Shown here piece by piece: positions 14,507 through 14,552 of a stretch of DNA of 15,828 bases. This DNA comes from a virus (taxonomy: Duplodnaviria; Heunggongvirae; Uroviricota; Caudoviricetes). Every line of letters begins with the position of its first letter. The first letter of the stretch is position 1. Under the pieces are notes generated by a model that saw nothing but the letters and a program-made list of their open reading frames with translations, did not search any database and was not told the origin of the DNA. The position numbers and the translations under genes are program-made. The stretch lies in IMG/VR virus record IMGVR_UViG_2700989170_000009; one strand, given 5' to 3'.

Positions 14507-14552
14507 TTGTTCGTAGTTGTTCCGCATTGTTGCTCATTGTTGCACGTTGTAT
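14507..14552 (+). promoter_or_regulatory. Five 10-bp-phased TTGTT(C/G) hexamers between int and alpA
   Basis: TTGTTC 14507, TTGTTC 14517, TTGTTG 14527, TTGTTG 14537, TTGTAT 14547; reverse complement of the GAACAA repeats at 9185-9210 and 1578-1594. Confidence 0.4.

Follow-up and report, generated by a model that had tools for sequence, protein, structure and literature searches.

Between the integrase gene int and alpA of a Shigella flexneri island lies a run of short T-rich repeats in strict 10-bp phase, which raises the question what kind of element this is and which protein, if any, reads it. The stretch of DNA analysed here (15,828 nt, the window) comprises phoQ (1-1461) and, next to it, a Shigella flexneri capsid-forming phage-inducible chromosomal island (cf-PICI) whose insertion site is between phoQ and roxA. 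The island has the gene set of a cf-PICI, namely int, alpA and rep together with genes for capsid, prohead protease, portal, head completion (head-tail connector), HNH, TerS and TerL; tail genes are absent, and all island genes run in one direction, on the minus strand. Three of them matter most for what follows: int (14599-15828, minus strand) encodes a P4-type tyrosine integrase with an arm-binding domain, rep (12062-10314, minus strand) a D5_N/DUF5906/Pox_D5 primase-helicase, and alpA (14036-14224, minus strand) a winged-helix protein of 62 amino acids with an excisionase fold, which we propose as the binder of the repeats. Besides these there are small ORFs, a DUF4222 gene and a PerC-like ORF. 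Rep is 100% identical to Shigella flexneri entries, the protein search having returned only near-identical Shigella sequences, and a search of a phage collection gave no match. Judged by the primers of the EcCICFT073 study, EcCICFT073 occupies the same roxA-phoQ site.

The major capsid gene of the window contains an in-frame stop codon at 8143-8145 (minus strand), whereas the gene of E. coli 12089 is intact and codes for 385 amino acids; the Shigella copy is therefore probably defective for capsid formation. The PerC-like ORF (9274-9435) is 53 amino acids long here, compared to 90 in E. coli 12089. In the corresponding region of L010 (12789-13194 of that locus), a closely related S. flexneri island, the PerC-like ORF and the terminator are separated by about 360 additional bases, and there are several other indels between the two islands.

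The int-alpA array (14507-14556, plus strand, and thus inverted relative to the island genes) consists of five phased units, TTGTTCGTAG TTGTTCCGCA TTGTTGCTCA TTGTTGCACG TTGTATCTGT. A preliminary description had read it as five TTGTT(C/G) hexamers at a 10-bp period. By direct reading and pattern search this is correct for four of them, with TTGTTC at 14507-14512 and 14517-14522 and TTGTTG at 14527-14532 and 14537-14542, whereas the fifth, TTGTAT at 14547-14552, is degenerate and keeps only TTGT. All units are on the plus strand, and the period is exactly 10 bp. The distances to the neighbouring genes were described accurately: the int stop codon is located at 14599-14601, with the array 47-92 bp beyond it, and the GTG start codon of alpA at 14224 is 283 bp away. 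The TTGTTS hexamer as such shows no enrichment in the window (25 found versus 23 expected). It is the phasing that is far beyond chance: runs of at least three TTGT units at 9-11 bp spacing occurred 0.042 times per Markov-shuffled window, and runs of at least four in 0 of 1000 shuffles; four or more copies of any 5-mer with a period of exactly 10 bp were seen 0.002 times per shuffled window.

Of 5426 complete E. coli genomes, 877 have this type of int-alpA spacer. Nine E. coli alleles, with 78-99% identity, all have the same TTGTT cores in units 2-4 but differ in the 4-5 bp between them; divergent alleles have up to six units, which are gained or lost in whole 10-bp steps. The same conservation pattern is seen in ten further spacer alleles from IMG/VR. 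Absence of the repeats from homologous spacers had been named as the observation that would speak against a functional array; within this spacer type we found the array in 9/9 E. coli and 10/10 IMG/VR alleles. In Xenorhabdus and Proteus, the int-alpA spacers of homologous islands are short and contain no arrays. RNA folding of the array shows no excess over shuffled sequences on either strand (z 0.16 and 0.98) and an Rfam search of the window gave no match, which rules out an RNA element; the array is thus a conserved double-stranded DNA element. An antisense promoter leading from the array into int was discarded as well, since no acceptable -10 element is found downstream, neither in the window nor in divergent alleles, manual reading included. 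Between the array and the int stop codon there is a perfect 16-bp palindrome, CAGTATGCGCATACTG (14566-14581), which is kept only in close alleles.

The int-alpA array does not stand alone. In an unbiased scan for phased TTGT units, exactly three arrays were found in the window, at 14507-14556 (plus strand), 9181-9231 (minus strand) and 1575-1604 (minus strand); a fourth lies in the attL arm, beyond the window. For the second of these, here termed the late array, three GAACAA hexamers on the plus strand at a 10-bp period had been described at 9185-9210. They are present as claimed, and two TTGT units upstream extend them to the full array of TTGTTATTTT TTGTAAATTAT TTGTTCGTGG TTGTTCCACG TTGTTCACTG, situated between a terminator and the capsid operon. 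A 45-nt block of the late array is invariant while its flanks diverge, making it the most conserved block of the region, and cf-PICIs from other genera have retained it, in degenerate form, ahead of their capsid gene. The intrinsic terminator (9234-9251, minus strand) is immediately upstream and shows compensatory stem changes between island variants. As a separate observation, the capsid-operon leader (about 9107-9133, minus strand) contains a conserved GTGG..(N)..GACG..(N)..GCCAC element, kept in cf-PICIs of several genera (GTGGCACTCAGACGTGAGCCGCCAC), which may serve as a packaging signal or form an RNA structure.

The remaining two arrays are found in the att arms. The attR-arm array (1575-1604, minus strand) has three units, TTGTGTCTAT TTGTTCCACG TTGTTTCATA. 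The attL-arm array, TTGTTCCAGC TTGTTTCACG TTGTAGCCCT TTGTGCAACG, is located just upstream of the int ATG and was read from loci with flanking sequence beyond the window (L010, with the array at 6146-6185, L090 and L102). In L010 a further phased TGTT(T/C) run (6084-6122) is seen between the att core and the four-unit array, so that the attL arm may contain 8-9 units in two blocks. The period is 10 bp exactly over the five int-alpA units and 10-11 bp in the other three arrays; all are head-to-tail direct repeats about one helical turn apart, as in the operators of recombination directionality factors (RDFs). TTGT is on the coding strand in three arrays, the int-alpA array being the inverted one. 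From 46 distinct units we derived the consensus TTGTTC(C/G). That the int-alpA and 9185-9210 repeats belong to one family, as had been suspected, is borne out by the 22-25 nt which they have in common (TTGTTCGTrGTTGTTCCrCrTTGTT). A different kind of array, four phased TGTCAC units with a 10-bp period (1973-2004, plus strand), is found downstream of terL, about 510 bp inward from the attR end; it occurs in some classical PICIs and is missing from some cf-PICIs, and is thus not simply a packaging site.

The att core, approximately AAATATGTCC, was mapped against the unoccupied roxA-phoQ site of K-12; it lies at the attR junction (1460-1469) and overlaps the phoQ stop codon. The tandem 12-mers GGTGTAGTTAAT GGTGTAGTCAAT (1538-1561, minus strand) are probable Int arm-type sites, laid out as the annotated attP arm repeats of P4, and the same pair is found just upstream of the int ATG, outside the window. 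These 12-mers are 68 bp away from the core in attR and about 126 bp in attL. Both att-arm arrays adjoin them, at a distance of 3 bp in attL and 13 bp in attR, again as for RDF operators, and this position in both arms points to RDF operators serving recombination as well as transcription. The preliminary description had seen in the repeats a regulatory code shared across the island. The sharing holds, with four members including both att arms; a purely transcriptional code is less likely, as arrays adjoin Int arm-type sites.

Which protein would then read the TTGTTC units? AlpA belongs to the Pfam family Phage_AlpA (PF05930) and to the PHROG category 'excisionase and transcriptional regulator', and is 47% identical to the P4 excisionase Vis. 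Its structural model (pLDDT 87) has the GIsul2 excisionase 8c3t as best fold match (TM 0.79/0.86), with RdfS and TorI also matching. The element thus encodes a small protein of the fold that an RDF operator calls for, and AlpA is the only such protein found in the island. In published work, AlpA alone, without helper phage, induced excision and replication (PMC6092414); an RDF encoded by the island must thus act at att, and no other protein with an excisionase fold was found. The only phased repeats beside the Int sites are the TTGT arrays, which are seen again ahead of the late operon and in the alpA control region that responds to AlpA. On these grounds we consider the int-alpA array to be one of four RDF operator arrays, most likely for the island's own AlpA, and give this reading a probability of roughly 0.55; both AlpA as the binding protein and the effect of its binding at the int-alpA array are what we infer here.

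According to this proposal, each AlpA monomer would read one TTGTTC(C/G) unit. As the units are head-to-tail and one helical turn apart, AlpA would form a cooperative assembly along one DNA face, bending the DNA. A filament of this kind in the att arms, beside the tandem 12-mers, would give the excisive complex its shape; one ahead of the capsid operon would activate the late genes; and the int-alpA array would be an AlpA-responsive upstream element of the alpA control region, providing positive autoregulation.

A survey of AlpA variants showed that those accompanying TTGTTC arrays have a common wing (GGRSVGW) and the residues R..RY in the recognition helix. AlpA-A and AlpA-B, which are 64-66% identical, both accompany TTGTTC arrays, the late array being the same across alpA alleles, and more distant AlpAs accompany TGTTCAT or GTTTATG units. 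In AlpA-B islands the int-alpA spacer is unrelated and has no array, but the late array (identical) and the att-arm arrays are kept; in one of these islands an array is present just downstream of alpA. As it is kept identical in AlpA-B islands, the late array travels with the packaging module and not with the alpA allele.

Our first lead was a different one, namely that the arrays are iterons for the P4-alpha-like primase-helicase, with the int-alpA array corresponding to P4 ori (upstream of vis) and the array at 9185 to P4 crr. The P4 type I iterons TGTTCACC of ori and crr indeed have a TGTTC core and 10-11 bp phasing in common with the arrays and form two clusters, one of them upstream of the AlpA homologue vis (by 280-380 bp) and downstream of alpha. 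Furthermore, the window Rep is 40% identical to P4 alpha, C-terminal part included, and in the Klebsiella locus L063 the int-alpA array of TGTTCATC units matches 7/8 bases of TGTTCACC, the iteron of its own P4-type Rep. Iterons would, however, be expected to covary with the Rep clade and to be situated at the origin 3' of rep, and in 79 loci with Rep relatives from other species it is another array, 100-250 bp downstream of rep, that covaries in this way: its motif is TCTACC/GGTAGA in the clade of the window, TGTTCACC in the P4-like clade and something else in others. The functional origin of EcCICFT073 has this position 3' of rep as well (PMC6092414). The TTGT arrays, in contrast, do not covary with Rep, two of them are in the att arms beside Int sites, and all four are kept in the cf-PICI of E. 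coli 12089, which has an unrelated RepA-family helicase. We rejected the iterons on the basis of the Rep-clade covariation, the published origin and the 12089 island, and regard them as very improbable. In the window, about 12 GGTAGA/TCTACC iterons in both orientations are grouped around an AT-rich stretch immediately 3' of rep (10071-10300), which is the probable replication origin; a full-text search for TGTTCACC returned unrelated papers only. It is improbable, too, that the arrays are extra arm-type or accessory sites for Int, with the int-alpA copy serving Int autoregulation. Int has an arm-binding domain, two arrays in the att arms are directly by the tandem 12-mers, and P4 Int represses its own promoter. 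The layout of the annotated P4 arm repeats is, however, matched by the tandem 12-mers, and Int sites would have no rationale at the capsid-operon promoter. What is more, the 12-mers vary with the Int clade (GGTGTAGTTAAT, GGTGTAGTCAGT, TGTATAAACA, GGTGGGGTAAT or TGTGTGGTCAGT), whereas the adjacent TTGTTC units are constant; in Int-B islands, for example, the 12-mers become TGTGTGGTCAGT and the neighbouring units stay. Only the 12-mers follow the Int clade, and the TTGT arrays were thus discarded as Int arm-type sites.

The arrays might also be bound by another trans-acting factor, such as the helper-phage inducer of alpA, the PerC-like protein or a host regulator of the TorR or OmpR type, which we consider unlikely, though far from negligible. 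The PerC-like candidate is encoded just upstream of the late array, in a segment that is 75-100% conserved in all these islands; on the other side, no DNA-binding activity of PerC-like proteins is known to us. Regulators of the TorR/OmpR types are winged-helix proteins that read tandem decamers, and some units are similar to the TorR box, CTGTTCATAT, for example TGTTCAT, which occurs in the attL arm as well as in L063 and L064; a host regulator would, however, leave unexplained why the arrays follow the island into several genera. In favour of a factor other than AlpA, the late array is identical where the alpA allele and the int-alpA spacer have been replaced, and helper phages induce alpA transcription via a factor that acts on the same fragment as AlpA does (PMC6092414). 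Against it stand the helper-free action of AlpA, the only excisionase-fold protein found, and the flanking Int arm sites, which are a typical RDF position (PMC7498355). Finally, the array might have no protein ligand at all and reflect intrinsic DNA curvature, or chance or duplicated sequence devoid of function. Phased T-rich units can curve DNA, and the up to 25 nt common to the two internal arrays could stem from duplication. Yet TTGTT is not an A-tract, only 0.04 such arrays are expected per window by chance, no block of its region is more conserved than the late array, and in alleles down to 78% identity the cores are invariant where spacers vary, with unit numbers changing in 10-bp steps. 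Conservation pattern and shuffles led us to reject curvature and chance, to which we assign next to no likelihood.

Coming back to the proposed AlpA operators, we asked how the int-alpA array would relate to alpA transcription. The best sigma-70-like promoter candidate for alpA, identified by consensus match, is TTGCCA-17 nt-CACAAT (14286-14314, minus strand) with a TG-extended second hexamer. It is overlapped by a degenerate phased array (14255-14294, plus strand; TCGTGTTCTA TTGCGTTGGG ATGTGTCTGA TTGTGTCAGG), which has the same orientation as the int-alpA array and which we tentatively include in the family; in one allele it contains an exact extra 10-bp unit, TTGTGTCGGA. A stable hairpin (14384-14412; z -3.9 on the minus and -3.2 on the plus strand), whose left arm is conserved in all alleles, is situated between the int-alpA array and the promoter candidate and is a possible terminator insulating alpA from int read-through. 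The preliminary description had proposed that the repeats serve alpA autoregulation or control of int. Autoregulation fits the published finding that AlpA activates its own promoter on a fragment from the int 3' end into alpA (PMC6092414); starting in the int 3' end, this reporter fragment contains the int-alpA array. A simple promoter-proximal form of autoregulation is not evident, however, because the array is inverted and about 230-280 bp upstream of the best promoter candidate. The int-alpA array may rather act together with the degenerate array by alpA and the hairpin between them. As to int, AlpA had no effect on Pint in published assays (PMC6092414), despite the array situated just ahead of int, which speaks against the AlpA reading.

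Some further features of alpA control regions deserve mention. Two copies of TTAAAGAGT(N)AT, at 14243-14251 and 14423-14431, are 180 bp apart and conserved in 9/9 spacer alleles; their core is similar to TTAAAG, the cox-box-like type 2 repeat in the origin region of P4, and they are candidates for a helper-responsive element. In loci from other genera (L029, L034, L052, L064 and L071) a hairpin is found immediately upstream of the alpA start codon, with compensatory stem changes and in some cases a T-run thereafter, which suggests control of alpA by attenuation or antitermination. The int-alpA region of K. pneumoniae ATCC 13883 (L063, 7192-7390) contains three phased arrays that differ from one another, with CATTCAACAG four times, CACGTAA three to four times and TGTTCATC five times.

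Judged by their sequence features, the arrays appear to have the testable defining properties of an RDF operator array. According to the literature, RDFs bind cooperatively to direct repeats with a spacing of one helical turn and bend the DNA. In P2-like phages and in P4, such sites also let the RDF regulate promoters at a distance from att, and the RDFs of P4 and KplE1 act at att where it adjoins the int promoter (PMC7498355). Closest are the Apl operators of coliphage 186 and the P2 Cox boxes, including those activating P4 PLL, which are direct repeats at 10-11 bp spacing like the arrays here. In the Apl/Cox system, att has five repeats and a distant promoter region seven, and a small HTH protein acts as excisionase and transcription regulator, binding cooperatively, with low specificity and with bending of the DNA (PMC7498355). 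Apl and Cox are not members of the AlpA family, though, and their motifs differ (Cox box TTAAAGNCA); arrays are present in both att arms here, unlike in Apl/Cox; and AlpA activates its own promoter according to the published work, whereas Apl represses. Lambda Xis (X1-X1.5-X2) and KplE1 TorI, the latter among the fold matches of AlpA, are winged-helix RDFs whose monomers form a head-to-tail micro-filament on phased repeats by an Int arm site. Lambda has its Xis sites in a single arm, and Xis plays no part at promoters, whereas two additional internal arrays exist here.

In P4, vis (orf88), whose product is the homologue of the window AlpA, heads the leftward operon, and the region upstream of it contains the replication origin and cox-box-like repeats. 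Vis is reported, as cited in PMC7498355, to bind attP, to repress Pint and to act at late promoters. A phased array of three units (3973-4002) adjoins the annotated arm repeats upstream of P4 int, as in the island studied here, but its units are ..TCCG and not TTGTTC. Both P4 and CP4-57, which encode related proteins, have other motifs near their arm sites, and in CP4-57 of K-12 no phased arrays of at least three units were found. For helper-embedded PICIs, the accessible part of PMC10111431 describes a doubled motif, co-oriented, that flanks the attP centre at distances of about 81 and about 132 bp and matches our tandem 12-mers in position; this part covers the doubled motif only, leaves its ligand open and does not report phased TTGT arrays beside it. 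The antiterminator model of Pseudomonas AlpA was rejected for the island protein. The Pseudomonas AlpA is larger, with multiple helices (H1-H8) and an N-terminal ring, whereas the window AlpA consists of 62 amino acids with a winged-helix domain only; the Pseudomonas antiterminator binding element (ABE), a single GGGACG between -35 and -10, also differs from the TTGT arrays in motif and layout.

AlpA has been described as the master switch of Gram-negative PICIs, including capsid-forming ones that spread between species. In the literature searched, we found no definition of its DNA targets or of the helper-phage input on the alpA promoter, and no PICI AlpA binding sites, footprints or gel shifts are described. 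The arrays are most likely of a known kind, i.e. operator arrays of an RDF such as Apl, Cox, Vis or Xis, and what is new is a candidate set for PICI AlpA: a concrete motif with coordinates, TTGTTC(C/G) in 10-bp phase, at four positions. This motif makes it testable whether AlpA is both an excisionase and a transcription activator, whether it drives the capsid operon directly, and where in the alpA control region the helper signal is received; it could also help to annotate the att arms and regulons of this island family. It is possible, though somewhat doubtful, that the TTGTTC arrays are a single cis-code by which one protein of 62 amino acids governs the entire life cycle of the satellite, with excision at both att arms, self-amplification and direct capsid-operon activation, or else docking sites for the helper-phage inducer. 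If true, either reading would provide the first defined DNA target for the induction of Gram-negative PICIs.
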